This document shows, piece by piece, positions 19,601-64,000 of a stretch of 64,000 bases of DNA. The translations under genes and the position numbers were made by a program. The stretch is taken from positions 140,804,001-140,868,000 of the forward strand of contig CM059431.1 of NCBI GenBank assembly GCA_030390025.1, written 5' to 3'. How positions within the stretch are numbered: the first letter of the stretch is position 1; each line of letters opens with the position of its first letter. The notes beneath the pieces were generated by a model, which was given only the letters and a program-made list of their open reading frames with translations, was not told the DNA's origin and searched no databases. The DNA comes from Squalus acanthias. Taxonomy: Eukaryota.

Positions 19601-19774
19601 ATCTCTAATAGCCATAACAGAGAAGTGGTTGCAAAGAGGCCAAGGTTGTGAACTAAATATTCCAGGATACTTTACTTTTTGAAGAAATAGGCAAAATGGA
19701 AAAGGACGAGCTGTAGCGCTGATAATGTAAGGGGAATAGACAGGAGTTTCTGTGGCCGCAACCGAGATTCCAGG

Positions 19775-20209: not shown

Positions 20210-20256
20210 TATGGCAGGGGAATGGGAACCTATGTAGCGAAACAGGGGGAAGTAAT

Positions 20257-38100: not shown

Positions 38101-39766
38101 TTTAGATGAGCACTTGAAACGCCATAGCATACAAGGCTACGGACCAAGTGCTGGAAAATGGGATTAGAATAGACAGGGCTTGATGGACGGCGCGGACACG
38201 ATGAGCCGAAGGATCTCATTCTGTGCTGTATAACTCTATGACTATGACTCTATGACTCTAGGACTGTGGGAAGGAGGTAATGGAACACCTCCATGTCCTT
38301 GCACCAGAGCACATACCGCGAAAACTATACCCTATAAAAAGGGAAGCACAGGAAGCGATGGTTAGAATAATGAAAGAATTTGAAGAACGATGAGTAGTGA
38401 GAGAAATCCAATCCTCCACGAATTCACCGGTGTGGCCGGCAGGGTAGCTGGACGGCTCATACCGTTTAACTATAGATTACACCGCCTTGAATGAGGTGAC
38501 ACCAAGAGAATACCCCATAGTAGCTAGTCCTGCAACGATTTCTAACGGATTGTCATCTGAACATTGCATCTTTACAGTGTTGGACATAGCTATTGGTTTT
38601 AGATCCATTCAATTGGCACCGGAGTCACAAAATAAGTTTGCCGTTATGGTAGGACAAAAACAATATACGTGGAACCGATGGACACAAAGATTCCACAAAA
38701 GCCCGGCTATATTCCACCAAGTAATGAAACAAGTACTATAAAGAGTCCAGTTGGATGACGGGAGTACTGTCATCCAATATGTAGACGACCTACTCATAGC
38801 CTCCAAAACAGAGAATGGTCATGTGCAAGCCCTACTGACCATGCTACAAGCCTTAGACGATGCAGGACTGAAGGCAAGTCCGAGGAAAGCCCCAGTAGGG
38901 CAAAGTGAGGTCCAGTATCTGTGGTATAACATCACCCAGGGGCAGCGCAGCATGCCTGAAGACCGTAAAAGGGAAATTGAGGGAATGCCAAGACCAATAG
39001 CTGTTAGGGGGATAAGGCAGGTTATTGGGTTGTTTAATTATAGCAGGAATTTTGTGGAAGGATTCGCCGAAAAGGCAGAACCTATCCAGAGACGAGTTAA
39101 GGGGGGCGGGGGGGTTGGGGGGTCATCCACCGGGCGCTCCAGTAGAACGGGGAGAGGAGCAAAATAAGGCTTATTGTGATATAAAACGGGCTTTAGTACA
39201 GGCCCCGGCAATAGGACTCCCTTCTATGGGAAAGCTGTTCAATCTGTTTGTACATAATGAGTGTGGCTATTATAGTGCAGTACTAGCCCAGGAACATGGG
39301 GATACGATGCGACCTGTCGCATACATTTCCACCAAAGAATCACCAGTGGCGAAAAGACTATCCCGATGTATTGCGGCCATAGACTGCGCCACATGGGCAG
39401 TTAAGGTTAGCGAACCAATAGTGATGACAGGAGAAATTAAATTGCACACCAGACACACCATAGTAGAGTTCCTAAACACTGGGAAACTGAGAACCGTCGC
39501 AGACAGCAGACGAGCAGCATGGGAAGCCATCTTGTTACCTCGGGATAAATCGATTTTGATCGTGAAAGACAGTAGGGTTAACCCAGCTGAATGGTATGTT
39601 AACAGATGGAGAGGAGCACAACTGTGTGACAAACGGAATTCTACAGTTTACTGAAGGAGAAAGAATTAGAGGTGGCAGAAATTACGTTGTTTGTCGATGG
39701 GTCTAGACGATATGTGGACGGGAGTCCACATAACGGATGGGCAACCGTAAACGGAGAAGGAAAATT
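35131..39766 (+). mobile_element. Decayed endogenous retrovirus: leader, internally deleted gag, protease, RT, tether and start of RNase H; split by a CR1
   Basis: ATG TGA CAG ACA GAA AAG TCA at 35320 (decayed MGQTEKS myristoylation start); protease ILIDRGAS...ILGMDLL; WAKHKQ|DCG joined across the CR1; NSPVWP, YRLTIDY, QYVDDLL (38778-38789), GLFNYSRNF, RPVAY tether, LFVDGS RNase H at ~39685. Confidence 0.9.
36175..38260 (+). mobile_element. 5'-truncated CR1 LINE inserted in the ERV pol gene
   Basis: [22 protein letters not shown]; (ACTCTATG)n tail; ERV frame resumes at 38262. Confidence 0.95.
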
Positions 39767-40480
39767 GGGCCAGAAATTCGGCTCTCCAGCTTCCCGCGGG
39801 TGCAAGAATCGTGCGCGTACTTACACACCGCGCCTGCCGTTGTGCTGTGTGCCCGCATGGAATTCGGCTGCTGGTCCTGCACCGGCTGCCGACGTGCAGT
39901 GCTTGCGTATCCCAGGGGCGCAGTTAGTTCAAAGCGTTCCCCTGGGATCACCTGGGTAGACCTGTCAAATCTATGAATAGAGATCGCCCTCAAAACCTCA
40001 CTAAAATTTAAAAAAAATCAAAAAGAAACATTACATTTTTAAAATAAAAATAAATTAAATAAATTAACTGCTTTAAACAAAAATTTCAATAAAAAAAAAA
40101 TTAATTACACTTTTTAACGGTGCTAAAAATAAATTTACCTTTCTTCAAAGTATGTAAAAACGATAAACCTGTTGAAAAAATATTGAAATTGTACTTAATT
40201 CGCCACTTACCTTGTTAAAAGCAGTCCTTGCACATCCTTTTTCCCGCGCAGGTTCTCTGTACTTACCCTCACGTAGAAACCTGAAGAAAAAAAACGAAGA
40301 ACGAGGTCTACGCGCTGCCTCTCCGGCGCACGCGTTGGACCTCTGAACCCCTTCCTTCAGGAGAATGGAAGTTCCGGTTTCCAGCGCATGCGCAGTGCAT
40401 GCGCAAAACCGGCACTTTCGTTGGGTTTTCGGGTGAGTACCCAGCGCGTACTCACCCGTGGAAACCTGAATTTCTGGCCC
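39767..40480. mobile_element. Non-autonomous DNA transposon (PIF/Harbinger-like MITE)
   Basis: Terminal inverted repeats GGGCCAGAAATTC...GAATTTCTGGCCC, ATT on both flanks, AT-rich core, no transposase. Confidence 0.75.
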
Positions 40481-40594
40481 ATTGAAAACAGACTTACACA
40501 TTACAGAGCATCTGATATAAAATGTATTTTTGAAAAGTGATAACAGTCCATGCATCGTGACTATAAATCTCCCAATGTTACTAATAAAGCAGTC

Positions 40595-41643
40595 TCTCCA
40601 GTGGAGACACGAATTTCTGGCCCGTTAATGGGCCAGAAATTTGGGTCTCCGGCTTCCCGCGGGTGCAAGAATCGCGCGCGTACTTACATATTGCACCTGC
40701 CATTGTGCTTCGGGCCTGCGTGGAATTCGGCTCCTGGGCCTCCTGCAGCTGCCGGCGTGCAGTGCTTGCATATCCCAGGGGCGCAGTTAGTTGGAAGCGT
40801 CCCCTGCTGCATTTCACACTTCATTTAGCCTCAACCTGTCAAATTAACACCTCCTCTTGCCTTGATTATCTCTTAATGTCTCTCAATGGCCCGAAAATTA
40901 GACCTAATACGCGAGAGTACGCACTGTGTACTCTCGCGTATTAGGTCCCGAATTCCTGCATGCACTGCGCATGCGCGGGAAACCGGCACTTCGTGTATTG
41001 CAAAGGGGGCGGTTCCTAAGTGAACCGCGTGCGCACTACAGGTTGCGTGCACGCAGTGCACTTAGTTTTTTATTCAGGTTTGAACGCGCAGGTAAGTGGT
41101 GAAGATTTTACACATGAAGAATGCAGGCGTAGGACCCCCTTTTAGCAAGGTAAGTAGTTAATTAAGTGTTATTTTAAAAAAAATTCAACAAGTTTATCTT
41201 TTTTAGAGACTTTAAAGAAAGGTAAGTTTATTTTTATAACTTTTAAAAAGATTTTAAATTTTTTCAAAAATTTAATTTTTTGTTTAAAGTGGTTAATTTA
41301 TTTAACTATATTTATTTTATTAATGTGATGGCTTTTTTTTAAATTTAATTGAGATTTAGCTGTTCTTTTGGGGGCTTGTAGTATTCATAGCTTTGACAGC
41401 CCTTGCTGTCAAAACTATGAATGAAAGATGGTGTGCTGCCATTGGCTCTAACTAAATCACGTGATCCCAGAGCTCGCACGAACTAATTGTGCCTCTGGGA
41501 TGCGCAAGCACTGCACGGTTGCAACAGGGAGAGGCCCTGAAACTAAAGTTCATGTGGGCCCGAAACAAAAAGGTAGGCGCGGAGTGCGATATCGCGGGGA
41601 ATCCTTACCCTCGCGGGAACCATCGATGTTTAATTTCTGAGCC
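40595..41643. mobile_element. Further related MITE pieces: orphan end (to 40623), truncated copy 40630-40805, inverted relative 40888-41643
   Basis: Same TIR; 40630-40805 matches 39767-39943; 41100-41360 is the reverse complement of 39990-40230. Confidence 0.7.
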
Positions 41644-45033: not shown

Positions 45034-48000
45034 TGTACGATAGACTGGTATTATGGATTCTTAGTAGATGGCAATCATATATGTATAAATTCAAGTGTAG
45101 CCATTGACCAACTAATCTTACCCATGATTCTCTGTCAGTATGGAAATGCTAAAGACTGTTCGAATGTAGCCACGAAGACAATTAAAAAGCAGTTTTGACT
45201 AAGCTCAGATAACATACAGCCACAGGTTGCGAGTGAATGTCATATTGTTAAATAATATGTTATAGTACTCATAACATATTATAATGCTAAGTAAGAATTA
45301 GAGTTCGCTTAACAAAATTAATTGCAAAGATATTTGAAAGATAATTAGTATAAAAGATGTAAAATGAAAGCGATCTTGGGAGTTAAAGTATCCACTTGGT
45401 AGATCAAAGTGAGATAGTCTGAACACCATCTAGATAAGGGAAACAGCTCTGACATGGGTCCCTTGGTATTAGGCCGTATACTGCTTGTACCAGGGAAGGT
45501 AGAATAAGGGAGATAAGATAAATTCCAATAGTGTGAAGAAATATAAACAAGATAACGATGAAACAGAGTAGAGTTATTGGAAAATTACTGAGCCAGGAGG
45601 AGTCAAAATGCTAGTCTTAGTCTGAGTGACAATTGTATTTTGATCATTAGAACCTATGAAATAAGGTAATTTTGTTAAGGACCATATATGAACAACATAA
45701 GAAATAGGAGCAGGAGTAGGCCAATCGGCCCCTCGAGCCTGCTCTGCCATTCAATAAGATCATGGCTGATCTGATCCTAACCGCCAATCTACTATCTACT
45801 ATCACAGAACCATCTCCTGCATCTAACAGAATTGCACACACGAAATAGGAGCAGAATCAGGCTACACGGTCCCTGGGCCCGCTCCACTACCCACAGGGCC
45901 ATGACCGATCCGAACCTAGACTCATGTCCAAATTCCTGCCCGCTCCCCGTAACCCTTAATGCCCTTTACTTCTAGGAAACTGTCTATTTCTGTTTTAAAT
46001 TTATTTAATGATGTAGCTTCTACAGCTTCTTGTGGCAGCATATTCCATGGACCTACCACCCTCTGAGTGAAGTAGCTCCTCCTCATCTCAGTTTTGAAAG
46101 AGCAGCCCCTTATTCTAAGACCATGTCCCCTAGTTCTAGTCTCACCCGTCATCGGGAACATCCTCCCCGCATCCACCCGATCCAACCCCTTCACAATCTT
46201 ATATGTTTCAATAAGATCGCCTCTCATTCTTCTGAACTCCAATGAGTAGAGTCCCAATCTACACAACCTCTCCTCATATGACCACCCCCTCATCCCCGGG
46301 ATTAACCGAGTGAACCTTTTTTGCACTGCCTCGAGAGCAAGGATGTCTTTCCTTAAGTAAGGACACCAAAACTGTATGCAGTATTCCAGGTGCGGTCTCA
46401 CCAATACCTTGTACAACTGAAGCAATACCTCCCTATTTTTATATTCTATCCCCCTAGCAATGAAAGCCAACATTCCATTTGCCTTCTTAATCACTTGCTG
46501 CACCTGCATACTAACCTTTTGAGTTTCGTGCACCAGGACCCCCAGATCCCTTTGCACTTCAGTACTCTCCAGTTTCTTGCCATTAAGATAATAAATTGCT
46601 CTAGGATTTTTCCTGCCAAAGTGCATCACCTCACACTTTCCAGTGTTGTATTCCATCTGCCAAATCTCTGCCCACTTACTTAGCCTGTCTATGTCCCCTT
46701 GCAGGTTTTTTATGTCCTCCTCACTCACTACTTTCCCTCCCATCTTAGTATCATCTGCAAATTTTGATATGTTACACTTGGTCCCTTCCTCCAAATCGTT
46801 AATATAGATTGTAAAGAGTTGGGGACCCAGCACTGACCCCTGTGGAACACCACTAGTTACTGATTGCCAGTCCGAGAATGAACCATTTATCCCAACACTT
46901 AGCTTTCTGTTAGATAGCCAATCCTCTATCCATGCCAGAATATTACCCCCAATCCCGTGATTTTTTACCTTAAGCAATAATCTTTTGTGTGGCACCTTGT
47001 CAAATGCCTTTTGGAAGTCAAAATACACTACGTCTACTGGTTCCCCTTTATCCACTGAATATGTTACTTCCTCAAAGAACTCCAGCAAATTTGTCAAACA
47101 TGACTTCCCCTTCGTAAAACCATGCTGACTTTGTCCTATTAAATTATGATTATCCAAATGTCCTGTTACTGTTTCCTTAATAATGGACTCCAAAATTTTA
47201 CCTACCACAGATGTTAGGCTAACCGGTCTATAGTTACCAGCCTTCTGTCTACTGCCCTTTTTAAATAAGGGTGTTACATTAGCAGTTTTCCAGTCTGCCG
47301 GGACCTTAGCGGAATCCAGGGAGTTTTGAAAAATTATTACCAATGCATCTACAATCCCTACCGCCACTTCTTCAATACTCTAGGATGTAAGCCATCAGGT
47401 CCAGGTGATTTATCCGCCTTGAGTCCCATTATTTTACCGAGTACCACTTCCTTAGTGATTTTGATCGTGTTTAGCTACTCTCCCCCTATAGCCCCCTGTT
47501 TGTCCAGTGTTGGGATATTCTTAGTGTCCTCTACTGTAAAGACTGATACAAAATATTCATTCAGTGTTTTTGCCATCTCCATATTTCCCACCATTAATTT
47601 CCCGGTCTCATCCTCTAAGGGACCAACATTTACTTTAGCCACCCTTTTTCTTTTTATATAACTATAAAAACTCTTACTATCTGTTTTTATATTTTTTGCT
47701 AATTTACTTTCATAATCTATCTTCCCTTTCTTAATCAATCTTTTTGTTATTTTTTGCTGCCTTTTAAAGTTTTCCCAATCCTCTGTCCTCCCACTAGATT
47801 TCGCTACCTTATATGCCCTTGTTTTTAGTCGAATACTATCCTTAATTTCTTTACTTAGCCACGGATGACTGTCCTTTCTTTTACACCCTTTTCTTTTCAG
47901 TGGAATATATATTTTTTGGAAGTTGTAAAATAACTCCTTGAATGTACACCACTGATCATGTGTCGTCTTACCCTTTAATCTATTTTCCCAAACCACTCTA

Positions 48001-49426
48001 CTCAATTCCGCTCGCATACCTTCATAGTCTCCTTTATTCAAGCTTAGCACGCTTGTTTGAGATCCAACCTTCTCACCCTCTAATTGAATATGGAATTCAA
48101 CCATGTTATGGTCACTCATTCCAAGGGGATCCTTTACTAGGACATTTTTAATTAATCCTGTCTCGTTACACAGGACCAGATCTAAGGTTGCTTGCCCCCT
48201 GGTCGGTTCAGTTACATACTGCTCAAGAAACCCATCCCTAATACACTCAATGAACTCATCCTCAAGGCAGCCCTGCCCCATTTGATTTGTCCAATTAATA
48301 TGATAGTTAAAATCCCCCATAATTATAGATGTTCCCTTATTACATGCCTCAACTATTTCCTGATTGATACTCCGTCCAACAGAGTTGCAACTGTTCGGAG
48401 GCCTATAGACTACGCCCACTAGTGTTTTTTTCCCCTTATTATTCCTTATCTCCACCCAAACTGTTTCATTATCATGATTTTTTGACCCAATATCATTACT
48501 CTGTATTACAGTGATTCCTTCCTTTATTAACATAGCCACCCCACCTCCCCTTCCTTCCTGCCTGTCCTTCCTGATCGTTAAATAACCTGGTATGTTTAAT
48601 TCCCAGGCATTGTCTCCCTGCAGCCATGTTTCTGTAATGGCCACAATATCATAACCATATGTAGTTATTTGTGCCATTAACTCGTCTATTTTGTTACGAA
48701 TGCTACGTGCATTCAGATAGAGAACTTTCAAATATGCTTTGTGGCACTTAGTTCCTGCTTTTTCACTTTTTACCACTTTACCTTTTACTCCACACACTCT
48801 GTCCCAAACTGCCACGCTCTGATTTGTGATTCCCCTACTGCTACCTATGTCTATGACCCTCTCTGTTGTCATTTTTATTTTTTGCTCTATTGAAACCTCC
48901 CCCCCCACCTAATTAGTTTAAAGCCCTCTCCACAGCCCTAGTTATTCGATTCGCCAGGACACTAGTCCCAGCACTGGCCAAGTGAAGTCCGTCCCAACGG
49001 AACAGCTCTCTCCTGCCCCAGTACTGGTGCCAGTGTCCCAAGAAGCAAAACCCATTTTTCCCACACCAGTCTTTGAGCCACGCATTCAACTCCCTGATTT
49101 TATTTACCCTAGCCAAATTTGCTCGTGGCTCAATATGGGCACTGGCCAAACGAACTGTTGATAAGAAAAGGGTTAAAACCCCGATACTAAAATAATAATT
49201 TCTCACAGAACTACTGCGAAGGCAAAGAAACAGATTGAAGACGACGTCACCTGTGTCCGAGAGGTTCCAGAGACCAAGGGCTGTGAGCTACTCGTTAAAA
49301 CTGTCGCCTATTGTTAAGTCTCTTACGCTGTAAGCTTAATAAATCTTGATCTATTGCTCAAACATACTGGCTGCTGCATATTGGTGTCTTGTCCAAGAAC
49401 TCTTAGGGATAATTTAAGCTCTTACA
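45034..49426 (+). mobile_element. Probable solo LTR (45034-45690 + 49133-49426, ~0.95 kb) split by a young CR1
   Basis: Non-CR1 sequence with TGTACGA...TCTTACA inverted termini and AATAAA about 85 bp before the end; the host CR1 resumes on both sides; TSD only degenerate (TTGC/CAGC). Confidence 0.6.
45691..49132 (-). mobile_element. Young 5'-truncated CR1 LINE (end of ORF1 + near-intact ORF2)
   Basis: ORFs 47475-48908 (APE: YLNARS, MGDFN, SDH) and 45922-47367 ([14 protein letters not shown]); one stop plus a frameshift between them; ATATG duplicated at 45686-45690 and 49133-49137. Confidence 0.96.
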
Positions 49427-49964
49427 CAGCCTATGTCCTCCTGACGTCTTCTAATGTCCTCCTCAGGGTTTACGAATTTTTCGAGTTTTGTTTCATCTGC
49501 AAGCTTTGAAATGATGCCCTGTATACCTAATTCCAGTTCATTAATATATATCAAAAACAGCAATGCTCGTAATATCGACCCCTGGGGATACCATTGTACA
49601 CTTCTCTCCAGTCAAAAAAACCACCGTTCACCACAACTTTTTGCTTTCTGTCCCTTCGCTAATGTTGTATCCACGCAAACATTGCACCTTTATTGTCGTT
49701 GGCTTCTAGTCTATTACGAAGTACTTTGTCAAAAGTCTTCTACAGTTCCATATAAACAACATCAACTGTACAACCTTCAACAGTCCGCTCCCTTATTTCA
49801 CAGACTGAGTGGCTTGTAGTTAATTGGTTTATCGCACTCCCCAATTTTTAAACAAGGGGGTAACATTTGCAAATCTCCAGTCATGTGGCACCACTCCCTT
49901 ATCCAAGGAGGATTTTAAGATTGAAGCCAGGGCCTTACTTCTCTCAGCAACCCAGGATGCATCC

Positions 49965-50158
49965 TGTCGTAAGAATGAGCCTTACGCGTGGTGAACTTAA
50001 AGTAAGCTTTAATCAACTAAAAAGGTGCTACATACAAAAGAGGTCTTACTCTATGCCTCTCCAGGATCCAACTGCTCAGTCCAGTATTTATCCTGGACTA
50101 ATCACAGGAAGTGATGCAATAAAGTTCGAGTCACAGGAAGCTGTATTGTGTTACCACA
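49965..50158 (-). repeat. 3' LTR of the Gypsy element
   Basis: Preceded on the minus strand by the G-rich PPT GGGGGGGGGAGAA. Confidence 0.97.
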
Positions 50159-50177
50159 TTCTCCCCCCCCCAAAAGA

Positions 50178-53100
50178 TTAGGAGGCCGGGATGCTCCCTC
50201 CATTTCGTAGCCGCCGGACGAGGGAGAGCCGCACCCGTTTGGGTTCTCGTAGCGGTAGAGGGCCCCTAGCCCGTTTACCCGCCGCGGGCCGTGGACCAGA
50301 GTCCGAGTGATCCAGCCCGCTCTGTGAGGGGTCAGGACGATCCTGACTGTGTACTGGTGCCTGAACGGGTGTCGGGCAGGGCTGTGGCAGATCCGTTTCC
50401 GAGCGTATGGTACGGGGTGGATCGTGGCTGCGCGTGCGAGCCCCGACGGGCTCACAGTCAGTCTGCCCCAGGTCGGCACGCTGGAGTGAGGTACCAGCCG
50501 GTGTCAGATCCAGATCGTGATGAGAGGCACCTGGCGAGCCCAGAGATGTGCCTGGTACAATATCATCCCCTGGTGTCCCTCTATGTTTCGGCGGGCAGGG
50601 AGCCAGATCCCGCAATGACACGGTAGATTCCCGACCGTCAGGATACCGAATATAGGCGTAGGTAGGGTTGACGTCAGTGAGCTCAACCTCATCTACCAGG
50701 GGGTCATTCTGAGACGCCCGGACATATCTTCGGAGTAGCACTGGTCCCGGTGCAGTCAGCCACGACGGGAGAGATATCCCATAGGATGAGCGACGCTGAA
50801 ATCGGAAGAACCGTTCATGAGGTGTCGTATTTGTGGCGGTCGAAAGGAGGGACCGTGTGGAGTGTAATGTGTCTGGAAGTACTGCTTCCCATTGCTGGTT
50901 GGGTAGGCCCCGAGATCTCAAAGCCAGACGTACCGCATTCCAGATGATAGCATTAAAACGCTCGACTTGCCCATTCCCGACCGGATGATAAGGCGTCGTT
51001 CTGCTGGCAGCAATACCCCGTTCCGAGAGATAGGCCTTGAGTTCTCCTGACATAAAAGAAGGGCCCCGATCCGAATGAACATAGGATGCCATGCCACAGA
51101 AAGCAAATACCTGCTCAAGGCAGCTGATAACCGTGGTCGTCAGCATATTGGGGCAGGGAAAGGCAAACGGAAAACGGGAATACTCATCGACCATGGTCAA
51201 TAGATAAGTGTTGCGAGTTGAAGAGGGCAACGGCCCCTTAAAATCGATGCTAAGCCGTTGCATTGGCTGGGTCGCATGTATGAGTATACCACCCGAGGGG
51301 CGGAAAAACTGAGGTTTCAATTCCGCACAGACTCTGCAGTCCGAGCACCTCTTCTTTACATCCCCGGTAGAGAATGGGAGATTTCGGGACCGCACGAAGT
51401 GTAGCAAGCGAGTAACGCCCGGATGACACAACCCATCATGGATGTCTACGAGCGTAGAGGGTGCCATGGCGGAGCAGAATGCTCGTGTGAGGGTATCCGG
51501 AGCCACATTCTCCTTGCCAGGTCGATAGTGGATGGTGTAACCAAAAGAGGCCAATTCCAGCCGCCAAAGCTGGATTTTATTATTTTTAATTTTGGTCCGT
51601 TTTCGATTATCGAGCATGAAGACGACCGATCGCTGGTCCGTGATTAAGGTAAAGTGCTGGCGAGCTAGGAGATGAGTCCACTTCCGTACTGCCTCTATGA
51701 TGGCTGTAGCTTCTTTCTCGACTGGAGGATAATGTAGCTCAGCCCCTTGAAAAGTCCTGGACAAAAATGCCACCGGACGACCTTCCTGATTCAGAGTGGC
51801 CGAGATCGCCACCTTCGAGGCATCACACTCAACAACAAAAGGAAGACTCTCATCGATGGAGTGAAGAGCCGCTTTCTCCAACTGTTTTTTCAGGAGGTTA
51901 AAGGCTGCAACAGCCGCTGTGTCTAGTGGGAATGTGCTGGTCTTCAGTAGAGGCTGGATTCGGTCCGAGAAGTTAGAAATCCATTTAGCATAGTATGCAA
52001 ACAGGCCGAGGGCCCGGCGCAAGGAGGCCGGATTCTTAGGTGGCGGGAGCTCTTGGAGTGGGCGAAGCCTTTCAGGGTCAGGTTTAATGATGCCATTGCC
52101 CACACAATAGCCAAGGATGTTGATGGTTGGTTGTGACTCAATGGATTTAGCCGCATTTAATGTCAAATTACGGTGCTGGAGTGCATCCCGAAATCGTTGG
52201 AGATTGGCGTCATGTTCCCGCTGATTGCGACCTGCGACAGTAATATTGTCCAGATAAGGAAACGTATCCTTCAAGTCTTCCTGTTTGACCAGGTCATCCA
52301 TTGCTCGCTGGAAGACAGCCACTCCATTAGTGACCCCAAAGGGGAGGCGACGAAATTGATACAGCCGTCCATTGGCTTCAAAGGCCGTATACTGCTTGTC
52401 TGAGACCTTCAAGGGTACCTGATGATAGGCACTTTTCAGATCATATGTTGAGAACACCGTGTACTCAGCCAGTTTATTAACCATATCATCGATGCGCGGC
52501 AATGGGTATGCGTCCAAGTCCGTATATTGATTGATGGTCTGTGAATAGTCAATGCACAGCCGTTTCTTGTGAGGTTGTAGAGGGTTCTTAACAATAACGA
52601 CCTGGGCGCGCCATGGCGACGAACAAGGCTCGATGATATCCTCTGCTAAAAGCTGAGAAATCTCAGCCGCAATAAAAGACTGGTCTTCCTGACTGAAACG
52701 TCGTGACTTTGTTATAATCGGTTTGCATCGAGGAGGGATACTGGTAAACAGTGAGGGTTCATCCAGTGAAGCTGTTGACAATGCACAGAACGGTAATCGA
52801 GGTCGTATATTAGAAATAGTGAGTTCAGGTTTGGATCCGCCGAACTCAATGGTGAGCTTCTTATGCTGCTTTTGAAAATCCAGCCCTAAGATAAGATCAC
52901 TACATAAGTCCTTGAGCACCGAAAGCCGGGTGGAGGGATACCTGTGACCATTAAGTGTTATTTCAACCATACAAAAGCCAGAAATTCTGGTATTAAGTGA
53001 TGACTGAGCCATCGCAATTGCCTGGTCCGATGGGAAAACATGTAGCTTTAACTCTGCAACAATCTGTTCCGTAATGAAATTATCAGTGCTACCTGAGTCA

Positions 53101-54134
53101 ATTAAGGCATCTAAAGTATGTCCATTAATTGATGCTTTTGTAGCTGCATGGAATAGGTTCTGAGGACAAGCAGCTGTAATTGGTGTCGTTGCACAAAGAG
53201 TGGCTGAAACTCTAGGTGTGTTTCTTCGAGAGAAAACCCGAGAGGAAGCACGATAGATTTTAGCCGGAACATCTTGATAGGCCCTTACCGGGGCAGTTCG
53301 GTAGGACTTAGCTTGATAAGCCCTCGTAGAGGCTCTTGATAGGCAAACCTTTGCAAAATTACCCTTTTTGTTGCAATGACTGCAAAACGCATTGCGAGCA
53401 GGGCAGAATTTCCGAGGGTGAAACTCATCACCACAAAAGAAGCATTTCTTAGATTGCCAAGAGGCTGCCACAGTGGGGTCATCCTCCTCTTCATCAGTGA
53501 AGTCATCAGATTGATCGTCAGGGATAAAGTCCTCCCTAATAGAGTTCACCTGTGGCCTCTTAAATTGCCTGACTGTAGTTAAGGCAGCAGACCGAGGTCT
53601 GGGCACTGTATAAAGGTCTGCATTTCTTTTTGCCAGATCTAGAGAGCAAGCCATGTCATAAGCTCTCTGAAGCTCAAGTGTCTTACTTTCCAGTAGACGC
53701 TGGCGTATAAATGGGGAGGCAAGCCCGCAGATGAAAGCATCACGGATCATTTCTTCACGGTACAGCTCAGCTGAGGCCGCCTGAAAGTTACAGTCCATAC
53801 TAAGTCTGCGAAGCTCTTGGAGGAATTTATCAATGGATTCCTCCGGCCCTTGTTGGGCTGTAGCTAGTAGATGTCTGGCATAGACCTCATTCGGTGTCTT
53901 AGTATATAGTCTTTTAAGCGTCCGAATTGCCTCCTCGTAACTGCCCCATTCCTCAACATACTGAAATACATTCGGAGTGACACAGTTGATGAGTATCCGC
54001 AACTTTGTGTCATCATCAGCCTTGCAATATTCGAGAAAATTGTCAAACGTGCGATACCAGTGTTTCCACACCTTACCGGCTGCTGGGGTGTTTGGGTCCA
54101 AGTCAAGACGCGATGGTTTAAGGATGTTTTCCAT
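50178..54134 (-). CDS. Gag-Pol polyprotein, 1318 aa (Gag with zinc knuckles, aspartic protease, RT, RNase H, integrase)
   Basis: CFFCGDEFHPRKFC knuckle, LIDSGS, LPFG...YLDN, VECDAS...EKEA...ITD, HHCC, IDFKGP/HSDRG/NGQVER; RT-RH-IN order indicates Ty3/Gypsy; no env or chromodomain seen. Confidence 0.97.
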   Translation of the reverse strand: MENILKPSRLDLDPNTPAAGKVWKHWYRTFDNFLEYCKADDDTKLRILINCVTPNVFQYVEEWGSYEEAIRTLKRLYTKTPNEVYARHLLATAQQGPEESIDKFLQELRRLSMDCNFQAASAELYREEMIRDAFICGLASPFIRQRLLESKTLELQRAYDMACSLDLAKRNADLYTVPRPRSAALTTVRQFKRPQVNSIREDFIPDDQSDDFTDEEEDDPTVAASWQSKKCFFCGDEFHPRKFCPARNAFCSHCNKKGNFAKVCLSRASTRAYQAKSYRTAPVRAYQDVPAKIYRASSRVFSRRNTPRVSATLCATTPITAACPQNLFHAATKASINGHTLDALIDSGSTDNFITEQIVAELKLHVFPSDQAIAMAQSSLNTRISGFCMVEITLNGHRYPSTRLSVLKDLCSDLILGLDFQKQHKKLTIEFGGSKPELTISNIRPRLPFCALSTASLDEPSLFTSIPPRCKPIITKSRRFSQEDQSFIAAEISQLLAEDIIEPCSSPWRAQVVIVKNPLQPHKKRLCIDYSQTINQYTDLDAYPLPRIDDMVNKLAEYTVFSTYDLKSAYHQVPLKVSDKQYTAFEANGRLYQFRRLPFGVTNGVAVFQRAMDDLVKQEDLKDTFPYLDNITVAGRNQREHDANLQRFRDALQHRNLTLNAAKSIESQPTINILGYCVGNGIIKPDPERLRPLQELPPPKNPASLRRALGLFAYYAKWISNFSDRIQPLLKTSTFPLDTAAVAAFNLLKKQLEKAALHSIDESLPFVVECDASKVAISATLNQEGRPVAFLSRTFQGAELHYPPVEKEATAIIEAVRKWTHLLARQHFTLITDQRSVVFMLDNRKRTKIKNNKIQLWRLELASFGYTIHYRPGKENVAPDTLTRAFCSAMAPSTLVDIHDGLCHPGVTRLLHFVRSRNLPFSTGDVKKRCSDCRVCAELKPQFFRPSGGILIHATQPMQRLSIDFKGPLPSSTRNTYLLTMVDEYSRFPFAFPCPNMLTTTVISCLEQVFAFCGMASYVHSDRGPSFMSGELKAYLSERGIAASRTTPYHPVGNGQVERFNAIIWNAVRLALRSRGLPNQQWEAVLPDTLHSTRSLLSTATNTTPHERFFRFQRRSSYGISLPSWLTAPGPVLLRRYVRASQNDPLVDEVELTDVNPTYAYIRYPDGRESTVSLRDLAPCPPKHRGTPGDDIVPGTSLGSPGASHHDLDLTPAGTSLQRADLGQTDCEPVGARTRSHDPPRTIRSETDLPQPCPTPVQAPVHSQDRPDPSQSGLDHSDSGPRPAAGKRARGPLPLREPKRVRLSLVRRLRNGGSIPAS

Positions 54135-54212
54135 GATGGGTGATTCCCTGGATCCTTAGTTCCGAGTTCGTCCAAAAAGTTTGAGTGCAAAGTTTTTCAA
54201 AGTTGATTAAAT

Positions 54213-54406
54213 TGTCGTAAGAATGAGCCTTACGCGTGGTGAACTTAAAGTAAGCTTTAATCAACTAAAAAGGTGCTACATACAAAAGAGGTCTTACTCT
54301 ATGCCTCTCCAGGATCCAACTGCTCAGTCCAGTATTTATCCTGGACTAATCACAGGAAGTGATGCAATAAAGTTCGAGTCACAGGAAGCTGTATTGTGTT
54401 ACCACA
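54213..54406 (-). repeat. 5' LTR of the Gypsy element
   Basis: Appears identical to 49965-50158; contains two ACAGGAAG motifs, a TATA-like ATAAATA and ATTAAA. Confidence 0.97.
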
Positions 54407-55269
54407 CATCCCATCCAGACCAGTGACTTTTCCACTTTGAGCGCTGTCAACTGTTTTAGTACATCCTCTTGATCTATTTATATCCTGTCCAATTTCTCTA
54501 CCACCTTCTCCTTTACTGTCACATTGGCAGCATCCTCTTCTTTAGCGAAGGCAGATGCAAAGTAATCATTTAGTACCTCAGCCATGCCCACTGCATCCAC
54601 AAGAAGATTGCCCTTTTGCTACTTAATCGTCGCACCTTTTCGTTGACTGTCCTTTTAGGCTTTATATGTTTAAGAAAAATGTTACTATTCCCTATTGTAT
54701 TGCCATTAATCTTTTCTCATACCATTTCCTTGCCCCTCTCAGTTCATTTTCATTCATCCTCTGTACTTTCTGTATTCAGCTTGATTCCCTGCTGTGCTGT
54801 TGTTGCTGTGTGTTTATTATACCAGTGTCTGCGTGTGTGAAACAGCAGAAAAATTAATCTTACAAGATATCAAACTTGGTTATAATTTAATGCCCGCGAA
54901 TAACATCAACTATAGTTTGGAGAAATGACTGATCTGAGACTGAATCGCTTTTACATTTCCTCAGTGGGGAAAGGAAAGGACGCTGACTGAGAGTTTGATT
55001 GGACGGACGTGCGAGGGCCCACATAGCGAGACACGCACAAGTGGAGAATTGTGATTGTAAAACAGCAGTCAGATCAAAGCAATTATGTATTTAAGGAGTT
55101 TACGATGATTGTAAGATCCCTATAGATATTCCAAACAAAAATTTTGGGCGTCACCAATCTGCTTAATGATACACAACTGAAAACATTGCACATTAGTGTT
55201 AATATTAGAGTAGCAGTGGTGAATGTCCTCACCTCCTACAGTGCTCATCAGTCAGCTGCTAACATCATA

Positions 55270-55900: not shown

Positions 55901-56849
55901 GCTTTCTCGCCTAGTCAATGGAGGTGCATGATGAGGCGATCTCAGCACAGAGGTCCACCGGCAATTGCTAGACCCTGACATTGAAACTATCATATCTGCA
56001 TCTGGTGCTACAGTAATCTGTTACTAGGCACCAGAAGCAGCATCATAGGTTCAATATTGGACTACGAGAGTGATAGAAGGCCGAAAGTTAACCCTTTGCT
56101 GGAGATTTACTATCTGCGATCGGGGAGCTAGGACAGAAAGCAAACGAGGATCAGTTTTATGGGATGGACAAAGGAGACCATGGGATGGACAATGGAGGCC
56201 ATGACATGGAAAAATTGCCAGATGAGAACATTCGAATGCTGTGGAAAGGTGAATGATGGACAAGGAAGGGTTACACACCATGGTCACAGTCACGGAGGTT
56301 GTAGTTTGTGACTTTGTTCGGGGCAGATTAGAATTAAATAGAAACTGCAGCAGAGAAACAGTCCTTTCGGCCCAAGTGGTCTATGCAGTGTTCATAATCC
56401 ACTTGAAACTCCTCCCACTCTAATTACATCTTTACAGCGTGTCCACATATACGTTCGAGGGCGATAGACAAGTGACACCAATATTAAATAACATTCAGAA
56501 CGCCGGAGACCCAATCCTCCTGGAAAGAATTGAGTGAGTTTGCCGCACTCCCCTCACTTCACTGATAATGAAGCAATTCATAAAAAATATATTGTGCTTT
56601 GTGACCCCACGTAACCCGGAACCCTGTTTAATTATTCACTTTGCAATGAAAAACTCCAGATATGCCTGTAGCATTAGAGTACTGTGTGCAGTATCGCGCT
56701 CCAGACTTTAGGGAGGCTATTGAGCCTCTAGAGAGTGAACAAAACAGATTCACCAGGAAGCTGCCTGGGAGCTGAAAAACAAGCAGAAACAACTATTTCG
56801 AATAACGCCGTTTATTTCATTAGAACAACGCAAATTATGGAGCGATATG

Positions 56850-59060
56850 ATAGATGTGTTTAAAATTATGTGCGGATGGGACAGGGTAGATAGACGCAGG
56901 CTGTTTTCAGCAGTTGAGCTGACACGTATCGAGGAGCCAATGAATTTAATTTTCAGAGTTTGCCAGGCCCACAATGAATTGGATCCGGTATCAAATCTTT
57001 AATAGAAAGAGGAAATGAAAAGGAGACATTTCAGCTCGGTGTATGAATGTTAACCGGTCAACGATGCTGAACTTTCACTTGTTTATCAGAGACATTTACT
57101 GATTCAGTTCCAGTAAGTGAAAGCCGAAGCTTGATACTCATGGGTGTAAACATCCTGATCAAGGCCGAGACTGTTACTCATTAACTGGAGACTGGCTCCC
57201 GGATTTTAACACCATTGTTCTTTGGTTAATAAATGACCAACACTGGAAAATAACCTGTACAGGTGACGGGAATTGTAGAAATATAGGGTATCCAGATCAG
57301 ATTAATATTATAAAAGATCTAACACCGAGATCAATAGAGCTGTGATACGAATGTTGTTCATTCCGGCAGAGTTAGAATCATGACAAAGATAATGATCGAG
57401 AGGTAGATGATTCCAAAGAAGTGTGTTGTGTTAACACAAAGAGCTCACGGTGCCCTTCCCTCTGGTGTTTGATTCCAATAAACTAACAGCGATGTTTGTC
57501 CCTGGATATCTGTGCCCTTTCATAGTTCGATAAAAACAAGGGTTTTTTTTCGGTTAGCAATATAATCAAATTGAGGTCACGGATATGAATCGGGGTACAG
57601 AACGCAATTTCCCTGCGTGGACTTCTGAACCGCAGATGGAAGAGATGGGGGAATATAATCATTTTTACCACACAAATTATTAATTACTTTTGGTAAAGAT
57701 CAGTAGTTCATCAGAATAATTCAAACAGAATGAGACCGTGTGTGATTCAGATCGAGGCCTGCACCAGAGAACAGGGCGGGGAGGGATTGTACTGATTAGG
57801 CTGAAGGTCGGGTTTATGACTGTGCTGTGTAACTGATGTTTACTCAGGGTGTGTTCATTAAACTGTATAACCCACAATGCTGACTTACCCGGACTCTCTG
57901 GAACCAGAATAAGGGACCGCAGCACAAGGTAAGGACCCGGAATATACCGAGCACCATTATAGTGTTTTATTGTAGCAGAACTGACCCAGTGCCATTTCCT
58001 GGTGGAGTAGTTCAATCAGAGTGAGAAGTTGAGATATCAACATTGGATCAGGTAAGAAATCATTGTTTTATTTTTTAGAAATTGCAGCAGCTTCATTTAG
58101 CAGAATAAAACTTCCAAATGTAACCCCACACATTAACATTCTGCTGGTGGAAATATTATTGAAATAGATTTCTAGTTTATGACACGCTTTTAAATAAACA
58201 GTTAGAGATCGAGACTTTTCAACATAAAACACAGCCCCGAACCTTCACTGAAATCCAATATATCCAGCCACGGAAGGTTTCCACTTTGACCCGCATTCAC
58301 TTTAGGATACTGGGAATCATTGCGGCCAAACCGAGGCAAATGCTGCCTTGTTGTCGAGGCGAGTTACGGTCCCGCTACTGATGAATCCATCCGTCACTTT
58401 GCTGATCATTGTGGGGTGGCTGGTAGGGCGGCAATTGGCCTGATTCCTTCTGTCCTTTATTTTGCGGATAGGACATTGTTGGTCATCGAAATCATACCCC
58501 TAAGGAGGTAAAATTTCACTTGAACAGTCTAACAACCATGGTCTGCATGTGCGGTAAGACGCAGTATAAAGCTAAAGGAAGTGACTCACACTAGTGTCAA
58601 GAAAAGCGGTAATCCTGAGACTGGGAGAAGCATAGAAAACAACAAAGGATACAAAGAAAATTTCAGAGCCGCAAAAGGGAATACGAAAATATCTTGCAAG
58701 TAATATAAAAGCGAATATAAAAAAATAATATAAATATATTAAGATTGAGAAAGTGACTGAGGGAGATGTGGTCCATTAATGCCAAACACAGATGATACGG
58801 TAATAGCTAAGAAGGTAACAGCAGATTTATTTAACAAATATTTTTGTCAGTTTTTACAATAGATGAAAAGGACACAATGCCAGTGAGAGAAGGCAACATA
58901 ATTTAAATCTAGGAGAGGAATTTAGTGTGTACATCATCGTAAAAATGTTGCTGGAGAAAATATTGGCAGTTTGGAATGATAAAACTCTACCACCAGATGA
59001 TTTCCACTCAAGGTTATTGAAAGAAGTAGGGTGCAAATTGCAGAAGCGTTAGTTAGAATC
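56850..59060 (+). repeat. Direct segmental duplication, left copy (contains unit copy B and flanking CR1 remnants)
   Basis: Collinear with 61810-64000 from GATGTGTTT.AAATTATG..GGACAGGGTAGATAGACGCAGG to AAATTGCAGAAGCGTTAG. Confidence 0.92.
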
Positions 59061-59480
59061 CTTCAAAGCTTTCTTGTTATGGAATTGTGCTGTTAGACTG
59101 GAAATTGCTATTTAAGATGGGTGTGATAGAAATTTAGGGAACAACATGGATGTCAGTTTAACGTCGGTTAAGGGGAAGCTACTAGAATTGGTCATTAGGG
59201 ATCGAGTGACTGAGTATTTGAGCAAAATGAGCTGATCAGAGAACCAGCATGGCTTTATTGAAGGTAATTCATGTCTGACTAATCTAGTGGAATATTTTGA
59301 GAACATCATTTATAAGGTGGACAACTGAGTGCCTGTGGATGTTGTCGATGTGGACTTGCAGAAGTCATTCGATAAGGTTCCACACAAAAGATAATTGACA
59401 CAAATGAGAGCGCATTGAAATGGAGGCAGCCTTTTAACTTGGTTTAGAAATTGTTACGGAGTTAGGAGAAAGAGTGGGGA
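58560..59480 (+). mobile_element. Degraded CR1 ORF2 fragment
   Basis: Decayed QHGFIEGNSCLTNL and DLQKSFDKVPH coding sequence. Confidence 0.8.
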
Positions 59481-59894
59481 TCAATGGTAGTCACATCTAT
59501 TGACATGTTGCAAGCCTGGCTTGTATGAGCTTGAATATAGCGGATTGAGTGGCAACCTGACCGAGGTGTTTAAAATGTTAAGAAGTTTCGATAGGGTAGA
59601 AAGAGTGAAACTATTTCCTCTGATCGGGGAATTAAGAACATGAGGAGATAGTAAAACTTTAGAATGAGGCCCTAACCTAGAGAAACAACATAATAGACAA
59701 AGTACCACAAGGGGAATTTTAAACAAGGAGATATGTGATCACACGAAAAAATATTGAAGAGGAACATTATCCAGCTGGTTGATGCAGGTTCATTATTGTG
59801 GGGCCATTTCTCGAGTCTGTAACAACATTCGGTGCAGAGAATATGAGACGGGTTTTGGATTGTGCTTTACTTCAAATAGCTGTTAAATATTTTT

Positions 59895-60066
59895 CAAAAT
59901 ACTGCGGATGCTGGAAAGCTGAAATAGAAACAAAGCATGCTGGAAATACTAAGCAGATTACGCAGCATCTGTGGAGACATCTGAAGAAAGGTCATCGACC
60001 TGAAACGTTAAATCTTGCTCTCTCCACAGATGCGGCCTGACCTCCTGAGTGTTTCCAACATTTTCA
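59895..60066. mobile_element. Penelope-type inverted-repeat remnant with hammerhead motif (~59981-60010, plus)
   Basis: Same family as 29186-29341 in tail-to-tail arrangement; CTGAAGA-AAGGTC-ATC-GACCT-GAAA-CGTT. Confidence 0.75.
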
Positions 60067-60192
60067 GCTGTTACACATTGTGTGTGGTGGATGGGAAATT
60101 AGACATCCAGCAGTATGGGGAAGGAAGCAGGAAATGTAATCAGACATGGGGGCAGGTGGAAAGGAAAGGAGAGGGTGAATCAGATATATAGA

Positions 60193-60377
60193 AAGGAGAA
60201 GTCGCGCAACACCAGGTTATAGTCCAACAGTTTTATTTAAAATTACGAGCTTTCGGAGCTGTTGCCCAGGGCAACATCTCCGAAAGCTCGTAATTTAAAA
60301 TAAAACTGTTGGACTATAACCTGGTGTTGTGCGACTTCTCATTTTTGTCCACTCCAGTCCAACACCGGCATCTCCGC
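60193..60377. mobile_element. Palindromic insertion (72-bp arms) with a 14-bp TSD; probably Penelope-derived
   Basis: Arms 60196-60267 and 60269-60340 with 3 mismatches; ATCAGATATATAGA at 60179-60192 and 60378-60391. Confidence 0.85.
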
Positions 60378-60399
60378 ATCAGATATATAGAGCAGAGGG

Positions 60400-61800
60400 C
60401 GAACGGGTGCGGGAATATCGGGCACGGAGCAGGAGGAAAGGATGGGTAAGGGTAAAATTCAGATTGCTGCAGGTGGAGAGAAATAAAGGGTTAGCGGGAG
60501 ATAGTTAGGAGTGGAGGAAGGTTGTAGAGCAGCAGGCAGTTATAGATGCGGGGGGGACATTCAGGCATGGAGCAGGTGGGATGGAAGGTGCATCTGGGGA
60601 AAGAGAGTTTCTACAGAATCAGGCATAGAGCTGATTGGAATGGAAGCAGGTGGGGAAACAGACATAATCCGGTGAGGGAGGGAAACAAACGTTAAAGACC
60701 AGGCATGTAATCGGCGGTGGGGGCAGCAGACAGGTAAAAGGCAGGGATTTCAGACACGGAGCAGGGGGAGCTGTAAACAGACTGGGAGCGGCAGCACAGA
60801 GAAGCAGGAAGGGGATTGAGACACTGAGCAGTCGAAATAGGTTGCCTGAACTTTTAACATTTATATTACATACAAATGCTAATTAGCAAATGAATTTAAT
60901 GTTCAGAGATTCCCCAGTTTCATAATAAATATATTCTGCCGCCAAAATCCAAAAAGAAAGATAAAAAAAATCTGTTAAAATAAATCATGACCACTTAAAG
61001 TAAACAGGGCGGTGAAGCAGGAATGTCACTTGTTTGCCGCACACATTGGCTGATTCAGTTCCAGTTACTGAACTCGGGAACCTGACACTGATGGGTGTTA
61101 ACAACCTGATCAAGGCCGAGACTGTTACTCATTAACTAAAGACTATTTGCTGGAGATTGTAATCAGCGATCTTTGTCCCTTGCCGTCTCTGCCCTTGTCG
61201 GGTCCGATAATAAATTGGTTTTATGGTGAACAATCACATCTTATTGAGGATCTGAAGCTGATTCACGCTACAGAACACGGTTTCACTGCGGGGTCTTCTG
61301 AACCGCAGATGGACGAGCTGTGGGGAAATATAGTCATTGTTACCACACAGAGCATTAATGACTTTTGTTAAAAGCTCAGTCATTTATTAGAACAATTCAA
61401 ACTGAATGCAACCTTGTGTGATTCTGATCGAGCTCCGCCCCAGAGATCAGGGCGGGGAGGGATTGTACTTATCAGGCTGAAGGTGGTGTTCATGACTGTG
61501 AGGTGTAACTGATCTTTACTTAGGGTGTGTTCATTAACCTGCAGAACTCCCAACGTTAACTTACCCGGACTCTCTGGGACCAGAATCAAGAGCCACAGCA
61601 CAAGGTAAGGGCAGGAATATACTGAGCACAATTATTGTCTTTTAATGTACAGAAATTGCATTTTCTTTGAGTAGTTGTTCAAAGATAGTGACAAGTTAAT
61701 ATACCAAAAATGAGCAGGTAATGACGGATGTATTTTGAGAAATTGATTTACTGGATGTTGCGTCAGTTCACGGAATGAAACTTCCATGTGCAATTTCACT
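60400..61800 (+). repeat. Low-copy duplicated unit, copy C (internal deletion near 61150)
   Basis: Matches the reverse complement of 17950-19600, including the purine-rich 60400-60850 tract. Confidence 0.85.
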
Positions 61801-61809
61801 CTAAATATG

Positions 61810-64000
61810 AGAGATGTGTTTCAAATTATGGGCGGCTGGGACAGGGTAGATAGACGCAGGCTGTTTTCAGCAGTTGAATTAACACGCACCGAGGAGCCAA
61901 TTAATGTAATTTTCACGGTTTCTCAAGCCCAGAATGATGGAATCCGGTATCAAACATCTAATAGAAAGAGGAAAAGAAAAGGAGACATTTCAGCTCTGTG
62001 TATGAAGGTTAACCGGCCAACGATGCTGAACATTCACTTGTTTACCGCACACATTGGCTGATTCAGTTCCAGTAAGTGAAAGCCGGAGCCTGATGGTCAT
62101 GGGTGTGAAAATCCTTATCAAGGCCCATACTGTTACTGATTAACTGGAGCATATCTCCAGATTTTATAGTCATTGCTCTGCGGTTAATAAATGATCATCA
62201 CTGGAAAATAACCTGTAACCAGTCATTTGACGGGAAGTGTAGAAATCTAGTTTATGCAGGTCAGATTATTAAATACCGAGATCAATAGAGCTGCGATCCT
62301 AATATAGGTCATTCCCATAGAGATAGAATCGGGAAAAATGAACAGCTAAAAATCGAAAGGTAGATAATACCAGAACAGTGTTGTGTTAACACAAAGAGTT
62401 CACTGTGCCCTTCCCTCTGGTGTTTGATCCCAATAAACTAACAGCGATCTTTGTTCCTCGCTCTCTGTGCCCTTATATATCCGATAATAAACAGGTTTTA
62501 TGGTGAGCAATATACTCAAATTGAGTTCACGGATATGAATCGGAATACAGAACGAGGTTTTCCTGCGGGATTTTCTGAAGCGCAGATGGAAGAGATGGGG
62601 GAAATATAATCGTTTTGACCAAACAAATGATTAATTACTTTTGAAAAAGATCAGTCATTCATCAGAATAATTCAAACAGAATGAGACCGTGTGTGATTCA
62701 GATCGAGCCCTGCACCAGTGGAAAGGGCGGGGAGGAATTGTACTGATCATGCTGAAGTTCGGGTTTAGGACTGTGATGTGTAACTGATCTTTACCCAGGG
62801 TGTGTTCATTAAACTGTATAACCCACAATCCTGACTTACCCGGACTCTCTGGAACCAGAATAAGGGACCGCAGCACAAGATAAGGACCCGGAATATACTG
62901 AGCACCATTATAGTGTTTTATTGTAGCAAAACTGACCCAGTGCCATTTTCTGGTGCAGTACTTCAATCAGTGAAAAGTTGAGGTATCAACATTGGATCAG
63001 GTCAGAAAACATTGTTTTATTTTTTAAATTGCAGCAGCGACATTTAACAGAATAAAACTTCCAAAAGTAACCACACACATTAACATTATGCTGTTGGAAA
63101 TATTATTGAAATAGATTTCTAGTTTATGACATGCTTTTGAATAAACAGTTAGAGATCGAGACATTTCAACATAAAACACAGCCCCGAACCATCACTGAAA
63201 TCCAGTATATCCAGGCACGGAAGGTTTCCTCTTTGACCCACATTGACCTTAGGATGCTGGGACTCATTGCGGCCAAACCGAGGCAAATGCTGCCTTGTTG
63301 TCGAGGCGAGTTACGGTCCCGCTATTGATGCGTCCATCCGTCACTCTGCTGATCAGTGTGGGGAGGCTGGTAGAGCGGTAATTGGCCTGATTCCGTCTGT
63401 CTTTAATTTTGTGGATAGGACATTGCTGGTTATCCAAATCATATCTATAAGGAGGTAAAATTTCACTTGTACAGTCAAACAACCATGTTCTGCATGTGCG
63501 GTAAGATCAGTGTAAAGCTAAAGGAAGTCACTCACTAATGAGAAGAAAAATAGTAATCCTGAGGACTGGGGGAAACATAGAAAAGAACAAAGAATGCAAA
63601 GGAAATATTAAGAGCAGCGAAAAGGGAATACGAAACACTTTGCAATTAATATAATAGCTAATATTAAAAATTAATATATTTGTTAAGATTGAGAAAGTGA
63701 CTGAGGGAGATGTGGACCATTAATGACAAACACAGATGATACGGTAATAGCTAACAACAAGGTAACAGGAGATTTTTTTAACGAATATTTTGTGTCAGTT
63801 TTCATAATAAATGAAATGGAAAAAATGCCAGTTCGATAAGGCAAAAATAATTAAATGAAGGAGAGGAATTTACTGTGTACATAATCGTAAAAATGTTGCT
63901 GGAGAAAATATTGGAAGTTTGGATAGATAAATCTCTCACACCTGATGATTTGCACCTAAGGTTATTGAAAAAAGTCGGGTGGAAATTGCAGAAGCGTTAG
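61810..64000 (+). repeat. Direct segmental duplication, right copy (unit copy D; runs off the window)
   Basis: Collinear with 56850-59060. Confidence 0.92.

Follow-up and report, generated by a model that had tools for sequence, protein, structure and literature searches.

Self-priming of reverse transcription was first demonstrated in the yeast retrotransposon Tf1. It is regarded as characteristic of the Tf1/sushi chromoviruses, in which the self-primer corresponds to the first 11 nt of the mRNA and RNase H cuts between nt 11 and 12, and cases have been predicted among plant copia elements. The primer of Tf1 is described as an 11-nt piece cut by RNase H (PMC7175516), and the element is reported to need an RNA pretzel made of three duplexes (PMC10085805). 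Beyond Tf1, where self-priming was shown, the available parts of the literature predict it for Tf1/sushi elements, for Tcn1, and for the plant copia TAR elements (PMC7175516, PMC4600332, PMC6317226, PMC10085805, PMC5341516, PMC6934838). One of these sources recognizes a self-primer by a complement to the LTR of at least 10 bp that starts 0-5 nt after the 5' LTR (PMC6317226). Since TAR elements are predicted self-primers, the signature already has a precedent outside chromoviruses. In a literature search that had most subscription papers and Repbase Reports outside its reach, we found no paper on self-priming in a non-chromoviral animal Gypsy clade, and the words PBS and primer are absent from the main text of the mollusc and annelid surveys. 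Repbase Reports is said to hold Gypsy annotations marked as 'self-primed'.

The stretch of Squalus acanthias DNA analyzed here (64,000 nt, hereafter the window) carries on its minus strand a Ty3/Gypsy retrotransposon of 4.4 kb, whose features are listed in Table 1. The order of its pol domains (PR-RT-RH-IN) is that of Ty3/Gypsy, the nearest solved structure is Ty3 Gag-Pol (E 4.8e-57), and the catalytic residues of the protease, the RNase H and the integrase are all present in its open reading frame. The element is young. Like Tf1 and Tf2 of S. pombe, Tj1 of S. japonicus, Tosmo/Tcry, and the Tf1/sushi group, it combines this gene order with the lack of a tRNA PBS, as far as the available descriptions of those elements go (PMC7175516, PMC4600332, PMC10085805). 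It also resembles the Tf1/sushi elements, as described in those texts, in that its 11-nt PBS complements part of the 5' LTR and its intact RNase H could cut the primer. As in the plant copia TAR elements (Houba, Osr-1) and the Tcn1 clade, its LTR complement has the length and the position given in the accessible text of PMC6317226. However, TAR elements belong to Ty1/copia and Tcn1 to a chromovirus clade, unlike the clade of the window element, which is a non-chromoviral animal Gypsy.

Table 1. Features of the Ty3/Gypsy element, in window coordinates and listed in the sense of the element
Feature	Coordinates	Strand	Remarks
TSD, 5' side	54407..54411	-	5 bp
5' LTR	54213..54406	-	194 nt, TG..CA
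TATA-like GATAAATA	54333..54340	-	Position -73, in the loop of a 7-bp inverted repeat (54326-54347)
T5 run	54267..54271	-	Precedes the arm on its 5' side; pairing with A5 (54193-54197) possible beyond a 3-nt bulge
LTR arm	54256..54266	-	LTR nt 141-151; predicted self-primer
Hairpin after the arm	54243..54255	-	5 bp; begins at the first base after the arm, the predicted cut site
U5 hairpin	54216..54234	-	7 bp; adjoins the PBS
Spacer	54212	-	1 nt (A) between LTR-terminal CA and PBS; 1 base in 26/26 families as anchored
PBS	54201..54211	-	11 nt, exact complement of the LTR arm, without TGG
gag-PR-RT-RH-IN	50178..54134	-	One ORF, 1318 aa from the first Met
RT active-site motif	52245..52256	-	YLDN, not YxDD; P0001 aa 634-637
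Polypurine tract	50159..50171	-	G9 then AGAA; abuts the 3' LTR
3' LTR	49965..50158	-	194 nt, 100% identical to the 5' LTR
Arm copy in the 3' LTR	50008..50018	-	
TSD, 3' side	49960..49964	-	5 bp

The first-pass annotation had reported that the 5' LTR is followed by an A and an 11-mer, with no TGG of the kind that starts a tRNA-type PBS, and this is what we find (54201-54212). Its claim that the 11-mer has a perfect complement inside the element's own LTR, 44 nt away, was borne out in the same coordinates, and the extension by T5 and A5 beyond a 3-nt bulge is present as described. The first base of the arm lies in an initiator-like context (TT-A-GTT), and its last six bases are ATTAAA (54256-54261), which places this hexamer about 72 nt downstream of the TATA-like GATAAATA, in agreement with the distance first put at about 70 nt. 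The copy of the arm in the 3' LTR would likely be the working poly(A) signal. When the LTR was shuffled with its dinucleotides preserved, an 11-nt complement for any of six PBS offsets occurred in 16 of 20,000 shuffles. Folding of positions 54180-54266 gives the helix between PBS and arm together with the 5-bp and the 7-bp U5 hairpins (z -2.8), and the z scores of longer 5' regions are weak (-1.1 to -1.4).

A few other observations concern this copy and its close kin. The U3 region has two copies of a CTTCCTGTGA motif (54352-54388, minus strand), which we take to be an ETS-like site. Near-identical copies (~99% over 50159-54430) are present in runs X2, X5, and X12, which come from three differently coded organisms, and the depth of their contigs is high in two of these runs, which suggests a multi-copy family of recent origin. 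Contigs in X2 and X5 include a variant LTR whose arm contains one additional base within its 5' end (54265), and this variant would stretch the pairing with the PBS of the window element to 12 bp.

To place the element among its relatives, we searched with its Gag-protease region and obtained 106 homologs, whose named hosts include an octocoral, an anemone, a shrimp, a woodlouse, a butterfly, and Trichinella. The DNA of relatives was taken from metagenome contigs, where 80 loci were kept out of at least 530 confirmed (45 of 64 parts scanned), and from contigs in bacterial MAGs, which gave 14 further loci. L001-L008 and L089-L094 are elements of this eukaryotic clade in contigs filed under bacterial MAGs, and they likely represent host contamination. 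Three loci whose contig lacks a 5' LTR (L010, L039, L040) fell outside the judgement, and L031 was left out of the count because its two arms lie at opposite ends of the contig. We could anchor 35 rows, from which one row per family was kept by eye, resulting in 26 families after nine near-copies were dropped (L009, L012, L013, L022, L023, L026, L029, L068, L088). These families have 22 different PBS 11-mers, and the RT-RH identity among 20 of them ranges from 40 to 94% (median 56%). Viral contigs gave 22 pattern matches, none of which is a relative, and a search of the ESM Atlas with Gag matched unnamed arthropod Gag clusters only.

The duplex between the PBS and the LTR arm is real and present across the clade. 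Searching blindly for the longest perfectly paired stem within the 300 nt that precede gag, in the window element and in the 38 loci that contain the gag start (out of 88 used), we arrived at the PBS position, 1-2 bases after an LTR-type CA, in 30 of 39 sequences. The misses are explained by short upstream DNA (two), by the lack of a 7-bp stem (five), and by a best stem elsewhere (two); on inspection the duplex is visible in four of them (L004, L017, L005, L083/L088). Among the 26 families, the PBS pairs with its own LTR at 10.73 of 11 Watson-Crick positions on average, against 7.16 for mismatched partners, and none of 20,000 permutations reached this value, a count that overstates the significance and is not a true probability, because the families are related. 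Similarly, the 11-mer is exact in 20 of 26 own pairs and in 15 of 650 foreign pairs, the own-pair score being inflated because the arm was placed wherever it fitted the PBS best. Both this inflation and the effect of kinship are guarded against by the blind search and by the flanks that the families have in common (the arm ends in AAA, followed mostly by GCC or ACC). In all 26 families, as anchored, the PBS starts 1 nt after the end of the LTR, and none of them has TGG at this place.

Compensatory changes give the same picture. In a MAFFT alignment of 15 rows, which was not fitted to the structure, 99.4% of the core cells pair and 7 of the 11 pairs have changes on both sides, while slid controls on the same alignment pair at 23-48%. 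The clearest case of recent change is L023, which is 98.2-98.8% identical to L026, L028, and L029 and differs from them by one change in both LTR arms and by the matching change in the PBS. The first-pass annotation had named a lack of covariation as contrary evidence; the outcome is the opposite, with strong compensatory change across the 26 families. In L013, a change is present in both arms and the PBS is unchanged. Pairing is imperfect within the 11-mer in six of the 26 families; in L071 the 3' LTR still matches the PBS, which points to decay after insertion as the probable cause of its mismatches.

The clade differs from Tf1/sushi in several of its proteins. It has neither a chromodomain nor GPY/F, and its Gag has two knuckles. 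At E 10, no Pfam family was found in the last 180 aa of the window element; PF00385 is absent from the 106 homologs (precomputed annotations), and GPY/F from 60 proteins, including that of the window element. The absence of a chromodomain, already asserted for this copy, is upheld by the first two of these searches. Double CCHC Gag proteins are a trait of Mag elements. The earlier description of a two-knuckle Gag holds in that two knuckle-like motifs are present, but the second departs from CCHC at one ligand in the window copy, the only one of 60 aligned rows to do so; the cysteines of both knuckles are invariant in the 60 rows. The clade shares with Mag A/B/C, Cigr-1, CsRN1, and MolGy the short LTRs (~150-230 nt), the lack of a chromodomain, and invertebrate or fish hosts. 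The start of the window LTR (TGTGGT) fits the CsRN1 5' motif TGTGGYG at 6 of 7 positions (PMC3601003), the clades being compared by description only.

Another difference from Tf1/sushi is the active site of the reverse transcriptase, which in this clade is mostly YxDN. The motif was found in 40 of 60 aligned clade proteins, the window copy included, and in none of the 21 readable outgroups, whereas the catalytic residues of RNase H, protease, and integrase are invariant in all 60. Our literature search found no publication in which YLDN occurs together with reverse transcriptase. In Ty1, the available text reports that a change to YxDN blocks transposition in vivo and that RNase H-domain mutations partly suppress this defect (PMC2148107). 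We considered YxDN as a requirement of the duplex and rejected it, because the 20 duplex families with a readable motif include 6 with YLDD next to 14 with YxDN.

We built a quick maximum likelihood tree with 52 RT-RH rows and a midpoint root, excluding L006, L060, and P0115 for their shortness and without sequences of Tf1, sushi, Mag, Cigr-1, or CsRN1. It places the 25 duplex-bearing rows and 6 named homologs on one side. The branch that parts them from the plant and chromodomain-bearing rows is long (SH-aLRT 100), and the RT-RH identity to these outgroups is 27-33%. The self-priming signature of the duplex-bearing clade is likely of independent origin, as judged from these sequences. By chromodomain and by pretzel the clade is not Tf1/sushi, though its core logic is like that of Tf1.

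The pretzel was assessed with a proxy that we built from the description available in PMC10085805, and it is not conserved: the duplex between U5 and the leader is no better than with foreign partners (13,232 of 20,000 permutations). A stem at the end of U5 is not conserved either (7 of 26 families vs 10.8 expected), though the window copy has one. Unlike Tf1/sushi, the clade has in place of three conserved duplexes a hairpin directly 3' of the predicted cut. A stem of at least 4 bp starting right after the arm was found in 15 of 26 families, where 5.9 are expected (P 1e-4), and a looser, ungapped version of the test gave 19 of 26 against 12.6. According to our model, this hairpin would be stacked on the helix of the primer, where the cut is predicted.

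The length of the duplex is also unlike that of Tf1/sushi. Perfect pairing has a median length of 13 bp, is often 13-16 bp, and reaches 18-19 bp in L037 and L012, and the arm overlaps a poly(A)-like hexamer. By position, 24-26 of the 26 families pair at positions 1-11, then 21, 20, 17, 15, and 14 at positions 12-16, and at positions 17-20 pairing is at background (5-6 of 26). The extension is specific to each family at positions 12-14, where own partners pair at 2.23 of 3 and foreign ones at 1.27 of 3 (0 of 20,000 permutations). Since pairing goes beyond 11 nt, to 18-19 bp, at least some of the RNAs must have their start upstream of the arm. A mismatch at position 14 is common to L011 and L068 and absent from L012 and L013, which shows that this position is not always recopied.

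The sequence around the 5' end of the arm bears indirectly on where the RNA might start. A T-rich run is followed by A at arm position -11 (19 of 26 families) and by G at position -10 (23 of 26). This context is close to the initiator consensus TCAKTY, as given in the text available (PMC3601003), though 6 of 26 families carry a purine ahead of the conserved A (AAG in 5, GAG in 1). There is no conserved TATA box: TATA-like patterns occur in 7 of 26 upstream regions, scattered from -11 to -90, and none is shared, so that the box at -73 in the window copy is no trait of the clade. We infer from these patterns a promoter that lacks a TATA box, whose start sites would include the arm's first base and others lying a few bases further upstream. 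The constant geometry and the drop of pairing to background past 16 nt favor a primer taken from the RNA's 5' end or from close to it, a placement that we regard as probable with some reserve. A raw poly(A) RNA run (X16, ~12% read) gave 0 reads; X2, X5, and X12 consist of contigs without end information. UGUA is not enriched (18 observed vs 20.2 expected).

We also tried a primer made by splicing, from the T-rich tract and AG upstream of the arm, and found no support for it. A crude score reaches p <=0.1 in 5 of 26 families (Fisher 0.24). The splice-acceptor score of the window copy is p 0.03; the PBS also pairs with the unspliced sequence, over up to 19 bp.

Taken across the clade, self-priming in some form is in our view very probable. 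Our best reading, for which we claim somewhat better than even confidence, is that this is a non-chromoviral Gypsy in which a stretch of the LTR serves as the primer in place of a tRNA, having been cut out of the element's own RNA at its 5' end or close to it. Transcripts would begin at an initiator with no TATA box, on the arm's first base or a few bases before it. The arm would then fold onto the PBS across a loop of 24-70 nt, with the short hairpin stacked on its 3' end, and the RNase H of the element would cut after the last A of the arm, as in Tf1. The reverse transcriptase would extend the 3' end of the arm through the 1-nt spacer into U5 and R, and then jump to the 3' R, which would extend from the position of the cut as far as a poly(A) site lying at some distance beyond the ATTAAA in the 3' LTR.

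The second half of the cycle would explain why the two sequences change together. In elements primed by tRNAs, the PBS is rewritten from the primer during plus-strand synthesis. Here, plus-strand synthesis would copy the self-primer into the PBS, and a change in the arm would reach the PBS in the next round; arm and PBS would thus be mechanically coupled. Starts scattered a few bases upstream would give the pairing beyond 11 nt, and leader bases that match slightly longer primers would be favored, because the end of the plus strand must anneal at the second transfer. Recopying of this kind would account for the double change in L023, the lag in L013, and the tapering of the extension.

The same evidence has to be weighed against other readings of the duplex, of which one retains self-priming and moves the primer. 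In this alternative, the RNA would begin 30 nt past the TATA-like box and about 45 nt before the arm; RNase H would cut after the arm, and the primer, internal to a longer R, would retain a long tail at its 5' end that is left unpaired. All the covariation evidence fits it equally well, the window copy does have a TATA-like box at -73, and the pairing 5' of the arm seen in many families (up to 19 bp) needs upstream RNA. However, pairing is at background by position 17, and the tail, once copied into the plus strand, would leave an unpaired 3' end at the second transfer. The proposal of the first-pass annotation that priming uses an internal or 3'-proximal part of R depends on the same box, and it loses its footing with the scatter of such boxes in the relatives; we consider this reading possible and rather unlikely. 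Poly(A)-signal hiding in the 5' LTR, or a role in packaging or translation of the leader, could instead be what keeps the duplex, with another primer in use. The arm ends in ATTAAA (8) or AATAAA (5) in 13 of 26 families and another such hexamer lies before the end of the LTR in only 4, from which the arm is likely the poly(A) signal in many 3' LTRs; moreover, the PBS follows only the 5' LTR, which would make masking specific to that copy. Yet the 13 arms without a canonical hexamer still pair, the partner sits 1 nt after the LTR end, which is the position for priming, no other primer site was seen, and copying of the PBS from the arm explains the double change in L023 more simply. We judge such a role in place of priming improbable. 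Masking of the 5' poly(A) signal, raised at first reading, survives as a side role at most, applicable to half of the arms, and may be a by-product.

A primer acting in trans has also to be considered, namely a 5' fragment of a host tRNA that ends in the D-loop, with the LTR arm as its relic or mimic. Half-tRNAs are known to prime some copia elements. The podocyte tRNA fragments AS-tDR-016239 and AS-tDR-016240, as listed in the portion of PMC7330628 available, match positions 54254-54268 (minus strand) at 14 of 15 bases. The pairing with the PBS of the window element covers 11 of 11 positions, with one G-U. The tRNA stretch involved is presumably the D-loop of tRNA-Thr(AGU). This likeness would arise by chance about once in 1000, in a rough estimate made after the fact, and an initiator next to a poly(A) hexamer could produce it by convergence. 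Against priming by such a fragment, its 11-mer pairs without mismatch with 8 of 26 PBS, compared with 22 of 26 for the arm belonging to each family, and a primer in trans would leave unexplained why the LTR follows 22 different PBS sequences. In addition, the fragments as listed extend beyond the required end of the primer (PMC7330628), and the region has no Rfam tRNA match. The 64-kb window contains no tRNA gene. The complementarity to a tRNA fragment that the first-pass annotation had named as contrary evidence exists for the window copy and fails for most of the clade, and we regard a tRNA fragment as the primer as very unlikely. We give hardly more credence to a mixed history, in which the clade would have passed from tRNA-fragment priming to self-priming by taking a tRNA D-loop into its LTR. 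The same 11 bases would then be initiator, poly(A) signal, and primer, and the members that match the tRNA, such as the window copy, would be primed in cis or in trans by a reverse transcriptase without the second aspartate of YxDD. Finally, the match could reflect chance or a rearrangement specific to this copy, as the 11-mer is A/T-rich and the folding of longer 5' regions is weak; but the low rate in shuffles and the recurrence of the duplex at the same place with different letters in relatives make this extremely unlikely.

If self-priming is true, the same logic operates with another RNA architecture in a widespread, non-chromoviral animal Gypsy clade, which would point to either a further origin or an old shared state, and this bears on the question of which came first, tRNA priming or self-priming. 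Self-primed elements would be expected to escape the control by 3' tRNA fragments at the PBS, and they would be missed by the tRNA-PBS filters used in the annotation of LTR elements. In addition, this clade is a natural source of young elements whose reverse transcriptase has YxDN at its active site.

The rest of the window is rich in repeats. SINE-like repeats of the window would suit a cartilaginous fish as the host. Its first part (1-16260) is a tandem satellite with a 40-bp unit in 407 copies (90% matches), and positions 32387-35200 are a G-rich minisatellite of mixed 21- and 27-bp units that yields long open frames. There are two broken LINEs, at 19691-23202 (plus strand) and 45922-48908 (minus strand), the former with an esterase (GDSL) ORF1 followed by endonuclease and RT. 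A second pol of LTR type lies in fragments (RT, RNase H) at 36840-39654 (plus strand), for which no LTR pair was found. Two direct repeats of 176 nt, 86% alike and 863 nt apart, occupy 39766-40804; the core between them is A/T-rich with an internal palindrome, and it gave no coding match. Finally, positions 56845-64000 form a tandem duplication with a period of about 4950 nt, whose copies are 83-93% alike.
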